Assembly: GCF_044324785.1 (NCBI RefSeq)
Contig: NZ_CP172127.1
Origin: Escherichia coli
Lineage (GTDB): Bacteria > Pseudomonadota > Gammaproteobacteria > Enterobacterales > Enterobacteriaceae
Direction: 5' to 3' (one strand)
Length of the DNA: 64,000 bases
Part shown: piece after piece, positions 35,488 to 47,035 of the stretch
How positions within the stretch are numbered: the stretch's first letter is position 1
How the letters are laid out: each line of letters opens with the position of its first letter
The notes under the pieces: generated by a model
The model's database searches: none
Told to the model about the DNA's origin: nothing
The model's input: the letters and a program-made list of their open reading frames with translations, nothing else
Position numbers and translations under genes: made by a program

Positions 35488-36390
35488 ATGCAAATCACCA
35501 ACATGCATTGCAGTGGACAGACCGTTTCACTTGCCGCGGGGGATTATCACGCGACTATCGTGACGGTTGGTGCTGGTCTGGCTGAATTAACCTTTCAGGG
35601 TTGTCATTTAGTCATCCCGCACAAACCCGAAGAGATGCCGCTGGCGCATCTGGGTAAAGTGCTTATTCCGTGGCCGAACCGGATCGCCAACGGCTGTTAC
35701 CGCTATCAGGGGCAGGACTATCAGTTACCCATTAATGAACATAGTTCAAAAGCCGCTATTCACGGGCTGCTTGCCTGGCGTGACTGGCAAATTAGCGAAT
35801 TAACCGCCACCAGCGTTACCCTGACAGCTTTTCTGCCGCCCAGTTACGGCTATCCGTTTATGCTGGCTTCACAAGTTGTTTATTCGCTCAATGCTCGCAC
35901 GGGCCTTTCCGTTGAGATCGCAAGCCAGAATATTGGTACTGTGACCGCACCTTATGGTGTGGGTATTCATCCTTATTTAACCTGTGACTTAACGCCTGTT
36001 GATGACTATCTTTTCCAGCTTCCGGCAGAACAGGTTTATGCCGTCGATGAGCACGCAAATCCGACAACGCTTCACCACGTTGATGAGCTGAATTTAAATT
36101 TCACGCGGGCGACAAAAATAGCCGCGACAAAAATCGACCACACCTTTAAAACCGCTAATGATCTGTGGGAAATGACCATTACCCATCCACAGCATTTGCT
36201 TTCGGTGAGCCTCTGTTCCGATCAACCCTGGGTGCAGGTTTATAGCGGTGAAAAATTACAGCGTCAGGGACTGGCAGTTGAACCTATGAGTTGCCCGCCT
36301 GATGCGTTTAATTCAGGTATCGACTTATTATTACTGGAACCAGGAAAAACGCACCGCCTGTTTTTTAATATTCACGGGCAGCACAATTAA
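35488..36390 (+). CDS. yihR: Aldose-1-epimerase-family protein (sulfoquinovose mutarotase candidate)
   Basis: 300-aa ORF at the expected position in the yih cluster. Confidence 0.8.
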   Translation: MQITNMHCSGQTVSLAAGDYHATIVTVGAGLAELTFQGCHLVIPHKPEEMPLAHLGKVLIPWPNRIANGCYRYQGQDYQLPINEHSSKAAIHGLLAWRDWQISELTATSVTLTAFLPPSYGYPFMLASQVVYSLNARTGLSVEIASQNIGTVTAPYGVGIHPYLTCDLTPVDDYLFQLPAEQVYAVDEHANPTTLHHVDELNLNFTRATKIAATKIDHTFKTANDLWEMTITHPQHLLSVSLCSDQPWVQVYSGEKLQRQGLAVEPMSCPPDAFNSGIDLLLLEPGKTHRLFFNIHGQHN

Positions 36391-36450
36391 TTTTATTAAG
36401 AAAAGAACGAGATCATTGTTTAGGGTTGTATTTACACAACAGGAAAGATT

Positions 36451-37326
36451 ATGGACTTTTTTACATTATTTACGCCGGACGGGGCCATGGTGGAAACAAG
36501 CGTGGTATGTATCGTTATCGCGTTAATGTTTCTTTATACCTTTGTGGGGATATGCGCGGGATTTGGCGGTGGTTTAACCACTATGCCGCTCGTCACGTTA
36601 ATGCTCCCCGTAAAAATGGCAACTCCGCTCTCGGTGATTGTCGGCACCGCAACCGCCTTGTACGCCACCTGGCTGTCACGTAAAGAAACGGATTGGCGAT
36701 CGGCAATGGTACTGATTATTTTCTCGTTTCTGGGAATACCCGTCGGTTTATATGCGCTGTCGTATTTACCCGACCATTTTATGAAAGTGGGCTTAGGCGG
36801 ATTCCTTATCCTTTACTCGTTTTACAGCATGTTTATTCCTCGCCTGCCGATTTATGACCGTAACTGGATCGCCGCACCTATCGGCGCAGTAGCTGGTGCA
36901 TTAGGTGCGGCGTTCTCAACCAACGGACCGCCGATGGTTATCTACGGTATGCTGCGTAACTTAGGCCCGGCGGCATTTCGCGGCACTTTGAACGCTTTCT
37001 TCACCGCAAACAACATCGCGGTGATCGGCGGGCTGGCAACCAGCGGAATTTTGACTGTCTCTATCTTTAAACTGGTGTTGTTTTGTATTCCCACCATGAT
37101 CCTCGGTTCACTGGTTGGACAATATGTGCATAAACGCATTTCGGTCAAAGTGTTCCGTGTGATGGTCTTTTTATTGCTGATTGCCTCCGGTTCTATGTTG
37201 ATAAAAGGCGCGCTGGGAATTCCCGCCGCTGCCGCACTTCTGCCTCCGTTTACCTTGTTAGTTATACTGCAACTGGCATTCGGTAAAAAAGTGGCGGCAA
37301 TCCGCCGGGCTGAAGAAAGTAAATAA
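36451..37326 (+). CDS. TauE/SafE-family (DUF81) anion exporter
   Basis: 291-aa ORF, about 8 TM segments in two halves, each with a Gly-rich motif (ICAGFGGGLTTMP and GAVAGALGAAFSTNGPPMVIYG) typical of TauE/SafE sulfite/sulfonate exporters; lies between yihR and yihQ. Confidence 0.7.
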   Translation: MDFFTLFTPDGAMVETSVVCIVIALMFLYTFVGICAGFGGGLTTMPLVTLMLPVKMATPLSVIVGTATALYATWLSRKETDWRSAMVLIIFSFLGIPVGLYALSYLPDHFMKVGLGGFLILYSFYSMFIPRLPIYDRNWIAAPIGAVAGALGAAFSTNGPPMVIYGMLRNLGPAAFRGTLNAFFTANNIAVIGGLATSGILTVSIFKLVLFCIPTMILGSLVGQYVHKRISVKVFRVMVFLLLIASGSMLIKGALGIPAAAALLPPFTLLVILQLAFGKKVAAIRRAEESK

Positions 37327-37431
37327 TCATTATGCGGGTTTTAATTTATACCCGCACACATTCTTTAATTAATGAAACCTGTAATAACAGGATGGCATGA
37401 AATATTAGCTTTATATCTATGGAGATTATTT

Positions 37432-39468
37432 ATGGATACGCCACGCCCACAGTTACCAGATTTTAAATTTCATCATAATAACGACCGTTTTACCCTACGT
37501 TTTCAGGGCCGTCTTATTTTATCCCATAGTAAAGATAATCCTTGTTTATCGATTGGCTCAGGTATTGCGGATATTGATATGTTCCGTGGCAATTTCAGCA
37601 TTAAAGATAAATTGCAGGAGAAGATTGCGCTTACCGACGCTACCGTCAGCCAGTCACCGGATGGCTGGTTAATCCATTTCAGCCGTGGTTCTGACATTAG
37701 CGCCACGCTGAATATCTCTGCCGACGATCAGGGCCGTTTATTGCTGGAACTACAAAACGACAACCATCACCACAACCGCATCTGGCTGCGCCTTGCCGCT
37801 CAACCAGAGGACCATATCTACGGCTGCGGTGAACAATTCTCCTACTTTGATCTGCGCGGCAAACCGTTCCCGCTATGGACCAGTGAACAAGGCGTTGGTC
37901 GCAACAAGCAAACCTATGTCACCTGGCAGGCCGACTGCAAAGAGAACGCGGGCGGCGACTATTACTGGACTTTCTTCCCGCAGCCTACGTTTGTCAGCAC
38001 GCAGAAGTATTACTGCCATGTTGATAACAGTTGCTACATGAACTTCGACTTTAGTGCCCCGGATTACCACGAACTGGCGCTGTGGGAAGACAAAGCAACG
38101 CTGCGTTTTGAATGTGCTGATACATACATCTCCCTGCTGGAAAAATTAACTGCCCTGCTGGGACGCCAGCCAGAACTGCCCGACTGGATTTATGACGGGG
38201 TAACGCTCGGCATTCAGGGCGGGACGGAAGTGTGTCAGAAGAAACTGGACACCATGCGTAACGCGGGCGTGAAGGTTAACGGCATCTGGGCGCAGGACTG
38301 GTCCGGGATCCGTATGACCTCTTTTGGCAAACGCGTGATGTGGAACTGGAAGTGGAACAGCGAAAACTATCCGCAACTGGACTCACGTATTAAGCAGTGG
38401 AACAAAGAGGGCGTTCAGTTCCTTGCCTATATCAACCCGTATGTCGCCAGTGATAAAGACCTCTGTGCCGAAGCAGCAAAACACGGCTATCTGGCAAAAG
38501 ATGCCTGTGGCGGTGACTATCTGGTGGAATTCGGCGAGTTCTACGGCGGCGTTGTCGATCTCACTAATCCGGAAGCCTACGCCTGGTTCAAGGAAGTGAT
38601 CAAAAAGAACATGATTGAACTCGGCTGCGGCGGCTGGATGGCTGACTTCGGCGAGTATCTGCCCACCGACACTTACCTGCATAACGGCGTTAGCGCCGAA
38701 ATTATGCATAACGCCTGGCCCGCACTGTGGGCGAAGTGTAACTACGAAGCCCTTGAAGAAACGGGCAAGCTCGGCGAGATCCTTTTCTTTATGCGCGCCG
38801 GTTCTACCGGTAGCCAGAAATACTCCACCATGATGTGGGCGGGCGACCAGAACGTCGACTGGAGTCTGGACGATGGCCTGGCGTCGGTCGTCCCGGCGGC
38901 GCTGTCGCTGGCAATGACCGGACATGGCCTGCATCACAGTGACATTGGCGGTTATACCACCCTGTTTGAGATGAAGCGCAGCAAAGAGCTGCTGCTGCGC
39001 TGGTGCGATTTCAGCGCCTTCACGCCGATGATGCGCACCCACGAAGGCAACCGCCCCGGTGACAACTGGCAGTTTGACGGCGACGCGGAAACTATCGCCC
39101 ATTTTGCCCGTATGACCACCGTCTTCACCACCCTGAAACCTTACCTGAAAGAGGCCGTCGCGCTGAATGCGAAATCCGGCCTGCCAGTTATGCGCCCGCT
39201 GTTCCTGCATTACGAAGACGACGCGCAGACCTACACCCTGAAATATCAGTACCTGTTAGGCCGCGACATTCTGGTCGCTCCGGTGCATGAAGAAGGCCGT
39301 AGCGACTGGACGCTCTATCTGCCGGAGGATAACTGGGTCCATGCCTGGACGGGAGAAACCTTCCACGGGGGAGAAATAACCGTTGAAGCGCCCATCGGCA
39401 AGCCGCCGGTCTTTTATCGCGCCGATAGCGAATGGGCGGCACTGTTCGCGTCGTTAAAAAGCATCTAA
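37432..39468 (+). CDS. yihQ: Sulfoquinovosidase (GH31 alpha-glycosidase)
   Basis: ORF 37372..39468; start set at MDTPRPQLPDFKFHHNNDRFTL (678 aa). Confidence 0.9.
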   Translation: MDTPRPQLPDFKFHHNNDRFTLRFQGRLILSHSKDNPCLSIGSGIADIDMFRGNFSIKDKLQEKIALTDATVSQSPDGWLIHFSRGSDISATLNISADDQGRLLLELQNDNHHHNRIWLRLAAQPEDHIYGCGEQFSYFDLRGKPFPLWTSEQGVGRNKQTYVTWQADCKENAGGDYYWTFFPQPTFVSTQKYYCHVDNSCYMNFDFSAPDYHELALWEDKATLRFECADTYISLLEKLTALLGRQPELPDWIYDGVTLGIQGGTEVCQKKLDTMRNAGVKVNGIWAQDWSGIRMTSFGKRVMWNWKWNSENYPQLDSRIKQWNKEGVQFLAYINPYVASDKDLCAEAAKHGYLAKDACGGDYLVEFGEFYGGVVDLTNPEAYAWFKEVIKKNMIELGCGGWMADFGEYLPTDTYLHNGVSAEIMHNAWPALWAKCNYEALEETGKLGEILFFMRAGSTGSQKYSTMMWAGDQNVDWSLDDGLASVVPAALSLAMTGHGLHHSDIGGYTTLFEMKRSKELLLRWCDFSAFTPMMRTHEGNRPGDNWQFDGDAETIAHFARMTTVFTTLKPYLKEAVALNAKSGLPVMRPLFLHYEDDAQTYTLKYQYLLGRDILVAPVHEEGRSDWTLYLPEDNWVHAWTGETFHGGEITVEAPIGKPPVFYRADSEWAALFASLKSI

Positions 39469-39513
39469 TCACGTCCGCCCGTGGGGAAACTCACGGGCAA
39501 AGGGAGAACAACG

Positions 39514-40899
39514 ATGAGTCACATCACAACGGAAGATCCGGCTACTTTACGTCTGCCCTTTAAAGAGAAACTCTCTTACGGTATCGGCGATCTGGCCTCT
39601 AACATCCTGCTGGATATCGGCACGCTTTATCTTTTGAAGTTTTATACCGACGTTCTGGGGCTGCCCGGCACCTATGGCGGCATTATCTTTTTGATTTCAA
39701 AGTTCTTTACCGCCTTTACCGATATGGGTACCGGCATTATGTTGGATTCCCGACGCAAGATCGGTCCAAAAGGCAAATTCCGCCCTTTTATTCTGTATGC
39801 ATCATTCCCGGTCACCCTGTTGGCGATCGCCAACTTTATCGGCACACCGTTTGATGTCACCGGTAAAACGGTGATGGCCACCATCCTGTTTATGCTTTAC
39901 GGACTGTTTTTCAGCATGATGAACTGCTCCTACGGCGCAATGGTCCCCGCTATTACTAAAAACCCCAACGAACGTGCATCGCTGGCAGCATGGCGTCAGG
40001 GTGGCGCTACATTGGGCCTGCTGCTGTGTACGGTGGGATTCGTGCCGGTTATGAATCTTATCGAAGGTAATCAGCAACTTGGCTATATCTTCGCCGCCAC
40101 GCTGTTTTCACTGTTCGGCCTGCTGTTTATGTGGATCTGCTACTCGGGCGTGAAAGAGCGTTATGTCGAAACCCAACCTGCAAATCCGGCGCAAAAGCCT
40201 GGCCTGCTGCAGTCTTTCCGCGCGATTGCTGGTAACCGCCCACTATTCATTCTGTGTATTGCCAACCTCTGCACTTTAGGGGCGTTTAACGTCAAGCTCG
40301 CCATTCAGGTCTATTACACGCAGTACGTGCTTAACGATCCCATCCTGTTGTCGTATATGGGATTTTTCAGCATGGGCTGTATTTTCATCGGCGTGTTCCT
40401 GATGCCTGGTGCAGTCAGACGTTTTGGTAAGAAGAAGGTCTATATCGGCGGCCTGCTGATTTGGGTGCTGGGCGATCTGCTCAACTATTTCTTTGGCGGC
40501 GGCTCGGTCAGCTTTGTGGCGTTCTCCTGCCTGGCGTTCTTCGGCTCAGCGTTTGTTAACAGCCTGAACTGGGCGCTGGTTTCTGACACCGTCGAGTACG
40601 GCGAGTGGCGCACCGGTGTGCGTTCGGAAGGTACGGTCTACACCGGCTTCACTTTCTTTCGCAAAGTGTCTCAGGCGCTGGCTGGTTTCTTCCCCGGCTG
40701 GATGCTGACGCAAATCGGCTATGTGCCAAACGTGGCGCAGGCTGACCATACCATCGAAGGTTTACGCCAGCTGATCTTCATCTACCCAAGCGCACTGGCG
40801 GTAGTCACCATTGTGGCGATGGGTTGCTTCTACAGTCTGAACGAGAAAATGTACGTCCGCATTGTTGAAGAAATAGAAGCCCGTAAACGCACGGCATAA
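39514..40899 (+). CDS. yihP: GPH-family sugar:cation symporter
   Basis: ORF 39481..40899; start uncertain (MGKLTG... at 39481 or MSHITTEDP... at 39514); multi-TM; paralogous to yihO. Confidence 0.85.
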   Translation: MSHITTEDPATLRLPFKEKLSYGIGDLASNILLDIGTLYLLKFYTDVLGLPGTYGGIIFLISKFFTAFTDMGTGIMLDSRRKIGPKGKFRPFILYASFPVTLLAIANFIGTPFDVTGKTVMATILFMLYGLFFSMMNCSYGAMVPAITKNPNERASLAAWRQGGATLGLLLCTVGFVPVMNLIEGNQQLGYIFAATLFSLFGLLFMWICYSGVKERYVETQPANPAQKPGLLQSFRAIAGNRPLFILCIANLCTLGAFNVKLAIQVYYTQYVLNDPILLSYMGFFSMGCIFIGVFLMPGAVRRFGKKKVYIGGLLIWVLGDLLNYFFGGGSVSFVAFSCLAFFGSAFVNSLNWALVSDTVEYGEWRTGVRSEGTVYTGFTFFRKVSQALAGFFPGWMLTQIGYVPNVAQADHTIEGLRQLIFIYPSALAVVTIVAMGCFYSLNEKMYVRIVEEIEARKRTA

Positions 40900-42202
40900 A
40901 TAATAAACAACGCCCTGCGGGGCGTTATAAGGAGTGATTATGTCTGACCATAATCCACTGACATTAAGACTGAATCTGCGGGAAAAAATCGCCTATGGCA
41001 TGGGCGACGTCGGTTCGAATTTAATGCTTAGCATCGGCACTCTGTATCTCCTCAAATTTTATACCGATGAATTAGGGATGCCTGCTTACTATGGCGGGAT
41101 TATCTTTCTGGTAGCGAAGTTTTTTACCGCGTTTACCGATATGCTCACCGGATTTTTACTCGACTCGCGGAAAAATATTGGGCCTAAAGGCAAATTTCGT
41201 CCCTTTATTTTATATGCAGCGGTTCCGGCGGCGTTAATTGCAACGCTCCAGTTTATCGCCACCACTTTTAGTTTGCCGGTTAAAACGACGATTGCCACCG
41301 CGCTGTTTATGATGTTTGGACTTTCATACAGTCTGATGAACTGCTCGTATGGCGCGATGATCCCGGCAATTACCAAAAACCCCAATGAGCGCGCGCAGCT
41401 TGCGGCTTACCGCCAGGGTGGTGCAACCATAGGGCTATTGATTTGTACCGTGGCGTTTATTCCGTTGCAGTCGCTTTTTTCTGACTCCACCGTCGGTTAT
41501 GCCTGTGCGGCACTTATGTTCTCCATTGGCGGCTTTATTTTTATGATGCTGTGCTACAGAGGCGTCAAAGAGCATTATGTGGACACAACGCCAACCGGAC
41601 ATAAAGCCAGTATTCTCAAATCATTTTGCGCGATATTTCGGAATCCGCCATTGCTGGTTTTGTGCATTGCTAACCTGTGTACCCTGGCGGCATTTAATAT
41701 CAAACTGGCGATTCAGGTCTATTACACCCAGTATGTGCTGAATGATATTAACTTATTGTCGTGGATGGGATTCTTCAGTATGGGATGCATCCTCATCGGC
41801 GTATTGCTGGTGCCATTAAGCGTAAAATGTTTTGGTAAAAAACAGGTTTATTTAGCTGGCATGGTGCTGTGGGCGGTGGGGGATATCCTGAATTATTTCT
41901 GGGGAAGTAACTCTTTCACTTTCGTCATGTTCTCTTGTATCGCCTTTTTTGGCACGGCCTTTGTAAACAGCCTGAACTGGGCACTGGTGCCAGATACCGT
42001 AGATTACGGTGAATGGAAAACCGGTATTCGTGCCGAAGGTTCTGTTTATACCGGTTATACCTTCTTTCGTAAAATTTCTGCCGCACTTGCTGGCTTCTTG
42101 CCAGGCATTATGCTGACGCAAATCGGTTATATTCCCAACATCGCGCAGGTGATGCTGCCAACTTACTGATTTAGTGTATGATGGTGTTTTTGAGGTGCTC
42201 CA

Positions 42203-42478
42203 GTGGCTTCTGTTTCTATCAGCTGTCCCTCCTGTTCAGCTACTGACGGGGTGGTGCGTAACGGCAAAAGCACCGCCGGACATCAGCGCTATCTCTGCTC
42301 TCACTGCCGTAAAACATGGCAACTGCAGTTCACTTACACCGCTTCTCAACCCGGTACGCACCAGAAAATCATTGATATGGCCATGAATGGCGTTGGATGC
42401 CGGGCAACTGCCCGCATTATGGGCGTTGGCCTCAACACGATTTTACGTCACTTAAAAAACTCAGGCCGCAGTCGGTAA
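42203..42478 (+). CDS. insA: IS1 protein InsA
   Basis: 91-aa [46 protein letters not shown]... Confidence 0.95.
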
Positions 42479-42900
42479 CCTCGCGCATACAGCCGGGCAG
42501 TGACGTCATCGTCTGCGCGGAAATGGACGAACAGTGGGGCTATGTCGGGGCTAAATCGCGCCAGCGCTGGCTGTTTTACGCGTATGACAGTCTCCGGAAG
42601 ACGGTTGTTGCGCACGTATTCGGTGAACGCACTATGGCGACGCTGGGGCGTCTTATGAGCCTGCTGTCACCCTTTGACGTGGTGATATGGATGACGGATG
42701 GCTGGCCGCTGTATGAATCCCGCCTGAAGGGAAAGCTGCACGTAATCAGCAAGCGATATACGCAGCGAATTGAGCGGCATAACCTGAATCTGAGGCAGCA
42801 CCTGGCACGGCTGGGACGGAAGTCGCTGTCGTTTTCAAAATCGGTGGAGCTGCATGACAAAGTCATCGGGCATTATCTGAACATAAAACACTATCAATAA
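42397..42900 (+). CDS. insB: IS1 transposase InsB frame (expressed as InsAB' fusion by -1 frameshift)
   Basis: 167-aa ORF overlapping the insA 3' end in the -1 frame. Confidence 0.9.
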
Positions 42901-43186
42901 GTTGGAGTCATTACCCATCGCGCAAAGTGATGCGACATTACAGGGTTTGCGTCAGCTCATTTTTATCTGGCCTTGTGCACTGGCAATTATTGCTGCATTG
43001 ACGATGGGATTCTTTTACACACTCAATGAAAAACGGTTTGCGTTGATTATTGAGGAAATCAACCAACGCAAAAATAAAGAGATGGCGACAGAAGAAAAAA
43101 CGGCTTCCGTAACGTTATAAATGTCAATAGCCGCTATTTCCATCCTGGTGGGTGGCGGCCTCCCTACGTTTAAAAATGGACTTATT

Positions 43187-43879
43187 ATGAAAAATATTAA
43201 TGCAATAATTTTATTATCTTCTCTGACCTCTGCCTCAGTATTCGCTGGCGCATACGTCGAAAACAGGGAGGCATATAATCTCGCCTCCGATCAGGGCGAG
43301 GTTATGCTACGTGTGGGTTATAACTTCGATATGGGCGCGGGTATTATGTTAACCAATACCTACACCTTTCAGCGAGAAGATGAACTAAAACATGGATATA
43401 ACGAAATTGAAGGTTGGTATCCTTTATTTAAACCAACCGATAAATTAACCATCCAGCCCGGTGGCTTAATTAATGACAAGAGTATCGGTTCGGGTGGTGC
43501 CGTTTATCTGGATGTTAACTACAAATTTACTCCGTGGTTTAACCTGACGGTGCGTAATCGCTATAACCATAATAATTACAGCTCTACAGATTTGAACGGC
43601 GAATTGGATAATAACGACACCTATGAAGTTGGCACCTACTGGAACTTTAAAATAACAGAAAAATTTTCCTATACATTTGAACCACATTACTTCATGCGAG
43701 TGAATGACTTTAATAGTAGCAACGGGAAAGATCATCATTGGGAAATCACTAACACCTTCCGTTACCGTATTAATGAACACTGGCTTCCTTATTTCGAATT
43801 GCGCTGGTTAGACCGCAACGTCGAACCGTACCACCGCGAGCAAAACCAGATCCGTATCGGGACGAAGTATTTCTTCTGA
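43187..43879 (+). CDS. ompL: KdgM/OmpL-family small outer-membrane porin
   Basis: ORF 43121..43879; start set at MKNINAIILLSSLTSASVFA (signal peptide, 230 aa); C-terminal ...IRIGTKYFF. Confidence 0.88.
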   Translation: MKNINAIILLSSLTSASVFAGAYVENREAYNLASDQGEVMLRVGYNFDMGAGIMLTNTYTFQREDELKHGYNEIEGWYPLFKPTDKLTIQPGGLINDKSIGSGGAVYLDVNYKFTPWFNLTVRNRYNHNNYSSTDLNGELDNNDTYEVGTYWNFKITEKFSYTFEPHYFMRVNDFNSSNGKDHHWEITNTFRYRINEHWLPYFELRWLDRNVEPYHREQNQIRIGTKYFF

Positions 43880-43886
43880 TGTGAAA

Positions 43887-43965
<79 letters not shown>

Positions 43966-43969
43966 CTAA

Positions 43970-45235
43970 TTAAGCTTCAGCCGCCAGCATCTCTTTCTTA
44001 CGTTGGCTAATACGCTTAACCAGCATTACGGAAACCACCGCACCACAGAATGCGAAGCAGGCCATAATGCCAAACACGATTTTGTAGCCAATAATCCCCG
44101 GATTTAAATCCAGAATGTAGCCATACAGACTGAAGCAGAACATCGCCGGGGCGTAACCAATAAAGCTACCCAACGCCATCGCCGCGCCTGTTTTATTTTC
44201 AGCAATTTTTGCTTCGCCGATAGGTGCAAAAAATACGGCTCGCTGTGTAAAGACTATCGCGCCAAAGCCCAGCGTACATGCCATCCCTAAATAGACCGGC
44301 ATACTTTCGTGCGGCAGCATAATCAACAGTACGAGCGCAGCGGTACTGATGATAAAGGTGTAACATAGATATTTACTCGGCGATTTCAGGATCTTATCTG
44401 AAATCATGCCACCAATCGGTCCACCAATCATTTTCAGACAGTATTGGTTAATGATGCCGTAAGCCCCCACCAGCGCAACGGGCAATAGATAGATGTTTTT
44501 CAGGAATGGAATGAAGAATGTCAGGCCACAGTAAACCGCGTAAACGAAGAAGACGTTGAAAGCGATAAGCCAGATAGTTTTGTCTTTCAGCACCGAGGTC
44601 ATACTGGTGTTTTTCGATGCTCCGTCTTCTTTTTTCACCTCAACGGACGGTGCCTCTTCTTTGTCATTCAGAACAAAGAAAATGATAATGCCTACGGCAA
44701 TCACAATAAGGGAATAGAACCAGATGCCTGCTTTAAAACCCAATAAGCCACTGCCAAACCAGGTAAATACTGCCAACGCAGAAAATGCCACCACGGTATC
44801 GACAATGCCACGCCCTGTTTCGAAGAAGCCAAACAACCGACCTTGTTGTTCGCTATTGCCTAATCGACTTACCGACTTGAGCAAGACCGGCCAGTTCATC
44901 ATGTCGCAAGTAACGCCAAATAGCGCCCAGACAAAGAGGATGCCCCAATACCCCGGCATTGTCGTCAAATAAACACCCAGTAATCCTGTCGCAATGAGTG
45001 AGAATGACATGGTGTATCTGCGCGGTAGTTTATCGGCAAAATAAATAGACAGAAAAAAGCCCACTGTCGTGACAAATGAGTTTACCGACATAGCATTACC
45101 AATTTGACCATTGGTCAAATGGAAATATTCCTGCATCGGGATATAAAACGCATCTTTCAGCGACGGTAATTTATAAATTGTACCGCCACACAATGTTAAT
45201 AGACTAAATAACGCCCATTTCTTTTTCGTGAGCAT
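43970..45235 (-). CDS. yihN: MFS-family transporter
   Basis: 421-aa multi-TM ORF MLTKKKWALFSLLTLCGGTIYKLPSLKDAFYIPMQEYFHL... Confidence 0.88.
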   Translation of the reverse strand: MLTKKKWALFSLLTLCGGTIYKLPSLKDAFYIPMQEYFHLTNGQIGNAMSVNSFVTTVGFFLSIYFADKLPRRYTMSFSLIATGLLGVYLTTMPGYWGILFVWALFGVTCDMMNWPVLLKSVSRLGNSEQQGRLFGFFETGRGIVDTVVAFSALAVFTWFGSGLLGFKAGIWFYSLIVIAVGIIIFFVLNDKEEAPSVEVKKEDGASKNTSMTSVLKDKTIWLIAFNVFFVYAVYCGLTFFIPFLKNIYLLPVALVGAYGIINQYCLKMIGGPIGGMISDKILKSPSKYLCYTFIISTAALVLLIMLPHESMPVYLGMACTLGFGAIVFTQRAVFFAPIGEAKIAENKTGAAMALGSFIGYAPAMFCFSLYGYILDLNPGIIGYKIVFGIMACFAFCGAVVSVMLVKRISQRKKEMLAAEA

Positions 45236-45336
45236 AACATCCCCTAAGCGATTTTTAAAATCACTGTTTTAAAGGCAATAAGATACCGACCATTCATATC
45301 GAATGGTTTTATTAACTGCGTATGAGTTAAAACTTA

Positions 45337-46317
45337 TTAGTGGTTCAGAAGATGGTTTGCCTCTTGTTTGATTTGTTGTAGTACGTTACGCACATGATTT
45401 ATCTGATTAATTGCATCTTCTTTTTCTTTACGTAACCGCGCATCCAGTAAATGATTTTCTGGCAATGGTGTTTCACTCATCTGGCGATAAGGGATCCACG
45501 GATTATCATCTTCGTCTTCAAAGCGGAACGCCGGCGCATAGTAATCAACCTCTTCTTCCAGGCCATATGCCGTCACCTGCGGCTCATCATCACCAAGGCA
45601 GATAAGGTGCGTTAATAACGCTTTGAACGGCATATCACCCTGACCTGAAATACAGGCTTTATGACCCAGGCCACCCTGTTCTTTAACGATCAAGGCATCT
45701 TTAATATGGACCTGGGTAATATGCGGTGCCATCGTTTTTAAGGCGTCGATGGGATGCTCATTTGCATTGATCATGTTCGCAAAATCAAACAGTAAGGAAA
45801 GAGACTCCATCTCACTTTCTTTGACCAGCGACACCAGCTCATGACTTTTTAAATCTTCATGCTGCTCAATCGTAAAAGTCAGGCCGCTGTCCTGATACGT
45901 TTCCCGTACATAGGCAATGTCGTTAGCGATAATCGATAATACGTCGCGCAAATTACCTTCATAACGTGGATAAAAACGTACGGACGATGCCCCAGTTTTC
46001 AACGCAATGGCGACGGCTTCGTCAATAGATGCCTTATCTGAAGCGCTGGTTTCAATATGAATATCAAGGTTCAGACGGCGGGCTTTATCCCCAAAGGCAG
46101 AGAGTTCTTTATCGTCCATATTACCAAGAGAAAAACGCTCGCCATCCAGAACATGGATTTTGACGCCACGTAGATTATTTTCACTTGCGATATCAAGTAA
46201 ATCAGCAGGCAACACTCTTTCCAGCCGCATATTTAAATGAAAGGCATAAGCATGTAAATAAAGAGGAAGAGTGTCGACACGTTGTAGAATCTTTCTTGCG
46301 TTATTTATTGTCACCAT
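45337..46317 (-). CDS. yihM: Sugar-phosphate isomerase/epimerase (TIM-barrel) family protein
   Basis: 326-aa ORF at the expected position. Confidence 0.85.
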   Translation of the reverse strand: MVTINNARKILQRVDTLPLYLHAYAFHLNMRLERVLPADLLDIASENNLRGVKIHVLDGERFSLGNMDDKELSAFGDKARRLNLDIHIETSASDKASIDEAVAIALKTGASSVRFYPRYEGNLRDVLSIIANDIAYVRETYQDSGLTFTIEQHEDLKSHELVSLVKESEMESLSLLFDFANMINANEHPIDALKTMAPHITQVHIKDALIVKEQGGLGHKACISGQGDMPFKALLTHLICLGDDEPQVTAYGLEEEVDYYAPAFRFEDEDDNPWIPYRQMSETPLPENHLLDARLRKEKEDAINQINHVRNVLQQIKQEANHLLNH

Positions 46318-46324
46318 AAAACAC

Positions 46325-47035
46325 CTACAGATTAATGATGAGGTCTACGGCCTCAAATCGCCAATATTCAATATCTATCTGGACAATATTGCCTTGCTGG
46401 TCGGCGCGATGCTTTTCAATTAAGATCGCTGGCATACCCGCAGAACCGCCAAGATACTTGCTGATATCGCCCGGCATTCTGACGGGTTTGAAAATCAATT
46501 TTTTTACTACCGTCTCTTTTTGGTAGCACTTTTCCCAGACTGCAGAAAATGAGTGGTTTTCAAGTTGTTCAATAAAACCCGGAGCAACTTCAGGATTAAT
46601 ATATGTTTCGTGATAGAAAACTTTATGTCCTTCCAGCGCCCCCCAGCCGGTGATGCGATAGAGTTCAGTTGATGGTGTCACTGCAATCAGTGGCGCGAGC
46701 GTCTCGGGAATATCGCTGGTACGGTTTTTCTCGGTAAACCCCCAGGAAGGCTCTCGTCTTTGCTCAATTGCGGCCCGCTGAAAGCTCGCTGACAGCTCCG
46801 GACTGTAATTAAATCGCGGCTGGGTCACGAACCACCCCTTACGATCCTTACGGAAGATTTTGGATTCTGCCTCGAGGTTCAACAACGCCTGGCGCAGCGT
46901 CATACGTTTAATGCCCAGCAGTTCTCCCAGCTCTCTTTCTGAAGGGAGTTTTCCACCCGGCGTGGTGATGCCATCTTTCAACCACCGATCCAGTTTCTCT
47001 TTTGCATTTTCTACGGTGGATTGATTCTCCGCCAT
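46325..47035 (-). CDS. yihL: GntR-family transcriptional regulator
   Basis: 236-aa ORF with N-terminal wHTH (LPSERELGELLGIKRMTLRQAL). Confidence 0.85.
   Translation of the reverse strand: MAENQSTVENAKEKLDRWLKDGITTPGGKLPSERELGELLGIKRMTLRQALLNLEAESKIFRKDRKGWFVTQPRFNYSPELSASFQRAAIEQRREPSWGFTEKNRTSDIPETLAPLIAVTPSTELYRITGWGALEGHKVFYHETYINPEVAPGFIEQLENHSFSAVWEKCYQKETVVKKLIFKPVRMPGDISKYLGGSAGMPAILIEKHRADQQGNIVQIDIEYWRFEAVDLIINL

Follow-up and report, generated by a model that had tools for sequence, protein, structure and literature searches.

The locus described here touches on the question of how the end product of sulfoglycolysis leaves the cell, a step for which reviews presume the role of the permease YihP. 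Between yihR and yihQ, inside the sulfoquinovose (SQ) catabolic cluster of an Escherichia coli strain, we observe an additional membrane protein gene, and we ask what this protein is, where it occurs, and which compound it might carry in which direction. The window, i.e. the whole stretch of 64,000 nucleotides analyzed, is an E. coli chromosomal segment that includes pfkA, cpx, rha, fdo, yih, glnA, polA, and dsbA. Its nearest strain is N3, with 99.5% identity over the compared yih segment (positions 28000-46500 of the window).

The interval 36391..37431 (1,041 bp) corresponds exactly to the segment that separates the yihR stop codon from the start of yihQ, and it contains an intact open reading frame (ORF) of 291 amino acids on the plus strand (36451..37326), with an ATG start and a TAA stop, separated from yihR by 60 nt and from yihQ by 105 nt and co-oriented with both. 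Its position in the yih cluster is thus the one given by the initial annotation of this DNA. The rest of the cluster starts with two genes on the minus strand, csqR (yihW, 30483..31268), which encodes the DeoR-family repressor of the cluster and whose intact ORF was identified by tblastn and from RefSeq records of collinear loci, and yihV (31302..32198), encoding sulfofructose kinase. On the plus strand follow yihU (32366..33262), for the sulfolactaldehyde reductase that produces 2,3-dihydroxypropanesulfonate (DHPS), yihT (33286..34164), for sulfofructose-phosphate aldolase, yihS (34180..35421), for sulfoquinovose isomerase, yihR (35488..36390), for sulfoquinovose mutarotase (aldose-1-epimerase), and, after the additional gene, yihQ (37432..39468), for sulfoquinovosidase; yihV to yihQ were assigned from the ORF list and collinear loci. 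Next comes yihP (39514..40899, plus strand), encoding a GPH/MFS permease presumed in the literature to be the DHPS exporter of K-12.

The SQ importer gene yihO, also on the plus strand, is interrupted in this strain. Its 5' part (40940..42147) is broken at about codon 403 by a 768-bp IS1 (42148..42915, plus strand; insA 42203..42478 and insB 42397..42900), which is flanked by a 9-bp target duplication, CATCGCGCA, and the displaced 3' part (42916..43120) is followed by the porin gene ompL (43187..43879, plus strand; assigned from collinear loci). Because IS1 disrupts the importer gene, the SQ pathway, and hence any role of the additional gene in it, may be inactive in the source strain.

The 60-nt spacer between yihR and the additional gene (36391..36450) includes an AGGA sequence, resembling a Shine-Dalgarno site, 7-10 nt 5' of the ATG, and a consensus scan recognized no sigma-70-like promoter on the plus strand between 35300 and 37700. 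As the gene shares its strand with yihUTSR and yihQPO and follows yihR after only 60 nt, with its own Shine-Dalgarno sequence and no promoter of its own, it would most likely be co-transcribed with the yih cluster. Nevertheless, its transcription unit is uncertain, since a hairpin occurs right after its stop codon and since Kaznadzey et al. inferred that yihR and yihQ are transcribed independently in K-12. This hairpin (37333..37356, plus strand, arms TGCGGGTTTTAA and TTTATACCCGCA) was found by an inverted-repeat search and RNA folding, the segment 37321-37380 folding at -13 kcal/mol; having no clean T-run, it would be at most a weak terminator, and a terminator scan of the plus strand did not call it. 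Apart from this hairpin, consensus scans of the plus strand gave no convincing promoter or terminator between yihR, the additional gene, and yihQ. A near-perfect palindrome, CCTGTAATAACAGG, is located 5' of yihQ (37378..37391) and is possibly a protein-binding site. It does not qualify as a repeated operator, as the window contains 7 matches with up to three mismatches against 3.4 expected, which is not beyond chance.

The initial annotation had read the gene product as a TauE/SafE-type membrane protein and had called for a search with the corresponding Pfam model. This search gives a significant, near full-length match to PF01925 (TauE; E=4.7e-35, residues 23-248, model positions 2-235 of 237). 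The RefSeq protein WP_042002955.1 is 100% identical, and the product name "sulfite exporter TauE/SafE family protein", found in the records inspected, including O157:H7, is a label for the Pfam family, since no curated NCBIfam model matches the protein. The two Gly-rich motifs quoted in the initial annotation occur in the protein, the first (AGFGGGL) spanning residues 36-42 and the second (GAVAGALGAAFSTNGPP) residues 145-161, and they include the family columns that are invariant or nearly so in an alignment of 98 sequences, G37, F38, G39, and nearby P46 in the first case, and G145, G149, G152, A154, G159, P160, and P161 in the second.

An AlphaFold (AF2) model, computed from this alignment, for which a library of 1.84 billion representative proteins was scanned in full, has a mean pLDDT of 94.4 and a pTM of 0.90. 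Its core consists of helices 16-48 (kinked at 36-40), 54-75, 82-105, and 108-128, followed by helices 138-168 (kinked at 155-159), 173-198, 203-227, and 232-255, and an extra C-terminal helix (259-290) extends beyond this core of about 240 amino acids. The breaks in helices 1 and 5 coincide exactly with GFGGG and TNGPP, so the Gly-rich motifs occupy equivalent broken helices in the model. The hydropathy profile agrees with this polytopic topology, and Shlykov and co-workers reportedly described in 2012 the TSUP family as having eight transmembrane segments. A Foldseek search of AFDB50 returned more than 2,000 matches at E<=0.001, to models named 'Probable membrane transporter protein', and superposition on TSUP models typically gives target-normalized TM-scores of 0.93-0.97 and rmsd values of 1.0-1.5 Å at 27-36% identity. 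Among solved structures, there was no sequence match and no significant Foldseek match, the best being BacA with a TM-score of 0.42-0.49. An internal 4+4 duplication was considered as well; the profile-profile comparison of the N- and C-terminal halves with hhalign gave no significant signal (E=0.032, probability 1.6%, 38 columns only). Taken from the Pfam profile and the predicted fold, the 291-residue product is assigned to the TauE/SafE (TSUP, PF01925) inner-membrane permeases, and we refer to it as the TauE permease.

The namesakes of the family, TauE of Cupriavidus necator H16 and SafE of Neptuniibacter, share with this protein the Pfam family, the predicted fold, and the Gly-rich motifs in helices 1 and 5, and their genes are likewise located in organosulfonate catabolic clusters. 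The protein differs from its nearest non-orthologous relatives in TauE/SafE, which are only 31-38% identical among the 1.84 billion representative proteins, and it carries the extra C-terminal helix 259-290. Its expected substrate would also be different, DHPS instead of sulfite or sulfoacetate.

The initial annotation had further suggested that the gene is absent from the K-12 cluster and might be specific to a lineage. The first of these points holds, as the BW25113 and MG1655-derived records show a 198-bp spacer between yihR and yihQ that lacks the TauE gene; the canonical 10-gene K-12 cluster (ompL, yihO-yihW) differs from that of the window in this respect. The second does not, for 1,296 of the 5,426 complete RefSeq E. 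coli genomes contain the 1,041-bp interval, the gene occupies this slot in Salmonella enterica too, and many other Enterobacterales possess it. The interval lies on the chromosome in all carriers, nearly always as a single copy (the median being one place per genome). With yihS present in 4,017 of these E. coli genomes and the yihR/yihQ flanks in 3,980, about one third of the yih-positive genomes contain the TauE gene and about two thirds do not.

Comparison of the spacers indicates which of the two states is derived. The left end of the K-12 spacer is homologous to the window spacer between yihR and the TauE gene, through the ATG (z=4.0 against shuffled sequences), and its right end is homologous to the spacer between the TauE gene and yihQ, through the palindrome CCTGTAATAACAGG, which K-12 thus retains (z=4.9 against shuffled sequences). 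A remnant of the ORF was sought inside the K-12 spacer as well; the best local alignment scored below the shuffled mean, and homology is limited to the spacer ends. Since both ends are homologous, nothing of the ORF interior is left, and the outgroup Salmonella carries the gene in the same slot, the sequence comparison identifies the K-12-type cluster as the derived state, produced by loss of the TauE gene.

A rare third state is found in strain MLI104K2, in which the segment equivalent to 36580-37316 of the window is swapped for about 650 bp of unrelated DNA carrying a 238-aa ORF on the minus strand without a Pfam match. The yih cluster is mosaic among strains, with 92-99% identity in 300-bp windows, and sliding identity revealed no clean haplotype of carriers as opposed to non-carriers in the cluster. 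An origin of the polymorphism from two haplotypes or from foreign DNA was discarded, as carriers near the indel differ from each other as much as from non-carriers and the GC content of the gene (49.5%) equals that of the window (49.7%).

Such a variable slot, empty in most yih-positive E. coli, filled with unrelated DNA in MLI104K2, and embedded in a mosaic cluster, is what we would expect if the TauE gene were a passenger or a decaying gene without a role in SQ metabolism, kept by linkage at a recombining spot. We consider this very unlikely, given that the gene has dN/dS ratios of 0.08 in comparison with O157:H7 and 0.04 in comparison with E. whittamii, which shows that it is under purifying selection where it is present, and given that its reading frame is intact at every locus inspected, in more than 15 genera and always in SQ clusters, of two kinds and with three gene orders. 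The amino acid identity of 75-87% across genera, together with these dN/dS values within Escherichia, also excludes a chance ORF.

Comparison with the yih clusters of other Enterobacteriaceae, which the initial annotation had also proposed, shows a widespread orthologue in three arrangements. The orthologue group is tight, its members being at least 75% identical and falling into a single 50%-identity cluster; outliers in AFDB come from Azospirillum (76%) and Craterilacuibacter (64%). All orthologues that could be placed in a genome lie inside SQ clusters, which belong to two pathway types. In the first arrangement, the TauE gene lies between yihR and yihQ, as in E. coli, E. whittamii, and Salmonella enterica, whose orthologue is 87% identical and occurs as that exact protein in 23,831 indexed collection blocks. 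In the second, it lies between yihQ and an MFS gene, as in Kluyvera (with gaps of at most 13 nt), Pantoea allii, P. stewartii, two Atlantibacter species, two further Enterobacteriaceae, Lelliottia nimipressuralis, and Klebsiella quasipneumoniae. The last two have, besides TauE, a single YihO-like MFS protein and no YihP, and are in this sense the mirror image of K-12.

In the third arrangement, found in Edwardsiella, Hafnia, Morganella, and Raoultella, the TauE gene is the last of an operon that encodes, in this order, an IlvD/EDD dehydratase, an HpcH/HpaI aldolase, a mutarotase (aldose epimerase), an SGL lactonase, a YihU-like reductase, and an SDR dehydrogenase, and that is flanked by a divergent SSF symporter gene and a LacI regulator gene. 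The SDR matches sulfoquinovose 1-dehydrogenase of Pseudomonas putida (PDB 9gwu) with E=4.9e-99 and 334 bits, against 207 bits for the next match, and this orthology identifies the operon as being of the sulfo-ED type; as it ends in a reductase, it would form DHPS. A pentose pathway (Dahms/Weimberg) was also considered, as the dehydratase resembles L-arabinonate dehydratase and the SDR matches xylose dehydrogenase below the cut-off, and was ruled out because the SDR is nearest to the SQ dehydrogenase. Results from tblastn and ORF patterns suggest the same layout in Vibrio owensii, Mixta, Leminorella, Enterobacter sp. 10-1, and C. amalonaticus. From this gene context, the TauE orthologue appears as an accessory but conserved component of enterobacterial SQ clusters.

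What, then, would this permease transport? The initial annotation had proposed a sulfonate exporter. This is reasonable, and it is strengthened by the fact that one orthologue travels with two SQ pathways, whereas the opposite direction, import, is assigned in PMC8940949. In the cluster of the window, YihU would reduce sulfolactaldehyde to DHPS, an anionic C3-sulfonate end product, and the TauE permease would carry DHPS out of the cell, in parallel to or redundantly with the MFS protein YihP. The gene context makes it probable, in our judgment, that the TauE permease is such a DHPS exporter, redundant with YihP. Indeed, the sulfo-EMP and sulfo-ED-type pathways share only SQ itself and the conversion of sulfolactaldehyde to DHPS at their end, a separate importer of the sugar type is already available in each cluster (the GPH proteins YihO/YihP or the SSF symporter), TauE occurs without YihP in Lelliottia and K. 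quasipneumoniae, and TauE-type proteins are the predicted exporters of C2- and C3-sulfonates in other SQ clusters, all of which favor export of DHPS.

The predictions for these other clusters concern SftE of the sulfo-TAL pathway in Bacillus and other Firmicutes, a TauE-type predicted sulfonate exporter (PMC7491151), as well as SqwE of the sulfo-TK pathway, the TauE permease of Arthrobacter AK04, and the 'SL exporter' of the sulfo-ED pathway, which are predicted to expel the sulfonate end product. All four resemble the protein of the window in being TauE-type permeases encoded within an SQ cluster, with a proposed function in sulfonate efflux. They differ from it in that the latter belongs to an orthologue group of Enterobacterales and Vibrio, associated with DHPS-forming sulfo-EMP and sulfo-ED-type clusters, and mostly coexists with YihP.

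The sequence does not reveal in which direction the protein transports, and the main rival to DHPS export is that the TauE permease imports SQ, sulfoquinovosyl-glycerol, or another sulfonated substrate. The TSUP family is named after an uptake permease, its founding member being a 4-toluenesulfonate uptake permease, and SQ, no less than the end product, is shared by the two pathway contexts. Moreover, according to PMC8940949 (2022), TauE/TSUP transporters of sulfo-EMP and sulfo-ED clusters had been described before, by Denger 2014 and Felux 2015, and the paper gives these proteins exactly such an import role. We regard import as unlikely, since a symporter of the sugar type is already present in each of the clusters examined, either YihO/YihP or the SSF protein encoded divergently from the sulfo-ED-type operon, and YihO alone is required for growth of K-12 on SQ. 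The sulfo-ED-type operons also lack a sulfoquinovosidase, so a second importer for glycosides would be unneeded, and elsewhere in the literature TauE-type proteins encoded in SQ clusters are predicted to be exporters.

Outward transport of sulfite, protecting the cell against sulfite released from sulfonates, would be in line with the RefSeq product name and with the TauE of Cupriavidus necator, which has been proposed to be a sulfite exporter. As seen above, the name is a family label taken over from Pfam without a matching NCBIfam model. Both contexts end in a YihU-type reductase yielding DHPS, which leaves the cell intact, and neither includes a desulfonating enzyme, which makes the export of sulfite highly improbable.

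Export of DHPS, our preferred reading, has to be weighed against what is known of K-12, where YihO is the importer needed for growth on SQ and where DHPS is excreted, its export being attributed to YihP. The TauE permease is therefore not required for DHPS excretion, since K-12 excretes DHPS without it. The absence of the gene from about two thirds of yih-positive E. coli counts against the export reading; redundancy with YihP would explain why the gene is lost so often. YihP and the TauE permease would thus have the same proposed task in the same cluster and are complementary in some genomes, K-12 on one side and Lelliottia and K. quasipneumoniae on the other. They are nevertheless unrelated in fold and family, YihP being a GPH/MFS_2 protein about 65% identical to YihO and TauE a TSUP protein. 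Reviews up to January 2026 name YihP as the DHPS exporter of E. coli and do not mention the TauE gene.

A bolder, rather doubtful version of the export hypothesis is that enterobacterial sulfoglycolysis ancestrally had TauE as its dedicated DHPS exporter, and that YihP is a second importer of sulfosugars. If this were true, the textbook assignment of YihP as exporter would be wrong for K-12, which would then export DHPS by other means.

The gene, its family, and the link between TauE proteins and sulfoglycolysis were already known. The present analysis adds that the K-12-type cluster represents a state of loss, and that a single orthologue is common to sulfo-EMP and sulfo-ED-type clusters, sometimes without YihP. 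The efflux step in which the TauE permease would probably take part is the one that supplies DHPS to the sulfite- and H2S-producing bacteria of the gut.

The yih cluster, which encodes sulfoquinovose (SQ) catabolism, is unusually mosaic among Escherichia strains: comparison of window positions 32366-42100 with four loci from other genomes (L002, L003, L004, and L006) gave identities from 86% to 100% per 300-bp block. The most variable gene is yihR, with 87.7-99% amino-acid identity within Escherichia, and identity to K-12 falls to 86% in the block of the yihS-yihR spacer (about 35365-35590). The slot between yihR and yihQ, which is occupied by the gene of a TauE/SafE (TSUP) family permease in this strain, carries a rare third allele in E. 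coli MLI104K2 (L003 8283-9002, corresponding to window 36580-37316), where about 130 bp at the TauE start are kept and about 650 bp are substituted for the gene interior. The substituted segment contains a 238-aa minus-strand ORF, for which a Pfam search returned no match.

Some 40 nt before yihQ begins, we observe a near-perfect palindrome, CCTGTAATAACAGG (37378-37391), which is kept in K-12 and in TauE-carrying strains, has no second copy beyond chance within the window, and is interrupted in strain TUM20902 by a 6-nt ATAACA duplication. A regulator may bind here.

The TauE protein itself has an extra predicted C-terminal helix, LLPPFTLLVILQLAFGKKVAAIRRAEESK (residues 259-291, window 37225-37323; pLDDT about 85), a feature of the orthologue group associated with SQ clusters that is missing from typical TSUP proteins of 235-250 aa. 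The hydrophobic start of this helix suggests a ninth membrane segment, in which case the C-terminus would sit on the opposite side of the membrane.

TauE is also encoded in a second kind of SQ cluster, a sulfo-ED-type operon found in Enterobacterales and Vibrio, namely in Edwardsiella anguillarum (L014 2040-8885), Hafnia (L024/L025), Morganella (L028), Raoultella (L030), and, as tblastn and ORF patterns suggest, Vibrio owensii (L016). The other genes encode a dehydratase, an HpaI aldolase, a mutarotase, a lactonase, a YihU-like reductase, and an SQ-dehydrogenase orthologue (match to PDB 9gwu, E=4.9e-99). Genes for a LacI regulator and a divergently transcribed SSF symporter flank the operon; sulfoquinovosidase is absent. 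The YihU-like reductase stands where P. putida has a sulfolactaldehyde dehydrogenase, and the expected product would be 2,3-dihydroxypropanesulfonate rather than sulfolactate. In Raoultella, the operon adjoins typA-glnA, near which E. coli carries its yih cluster.

In this strain, the SQ importer gene yihO is split into two pieces (40940-42147 and 42916-43120), broken near codon 403 of 467 by a 768-bp IS1 (42148-42915; insA 42203..42478, insB 42397..42900) flanked by a 9-bp target duplication, CATCGCGCA. Growth of this strain on SQ is probably not possible. The insertion is absent from N3, the closest E. coli genome. The N3 annotation lists csqR and yihU as pseudogenes with frameshifts (L001 6095-6879 and 7977-8872), but the window carries intact copies of the two genes. 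The N3 frameshifts reflect either real pathway decay in that lineage or assembly errors. A megablast search with yihS found no match in 1,409 of the 5,426 complete E. coli genomes in RefSeq (about 26%), and the SQ cluster is therefore not as widespread in the species as the literature wording "core feature" implies.
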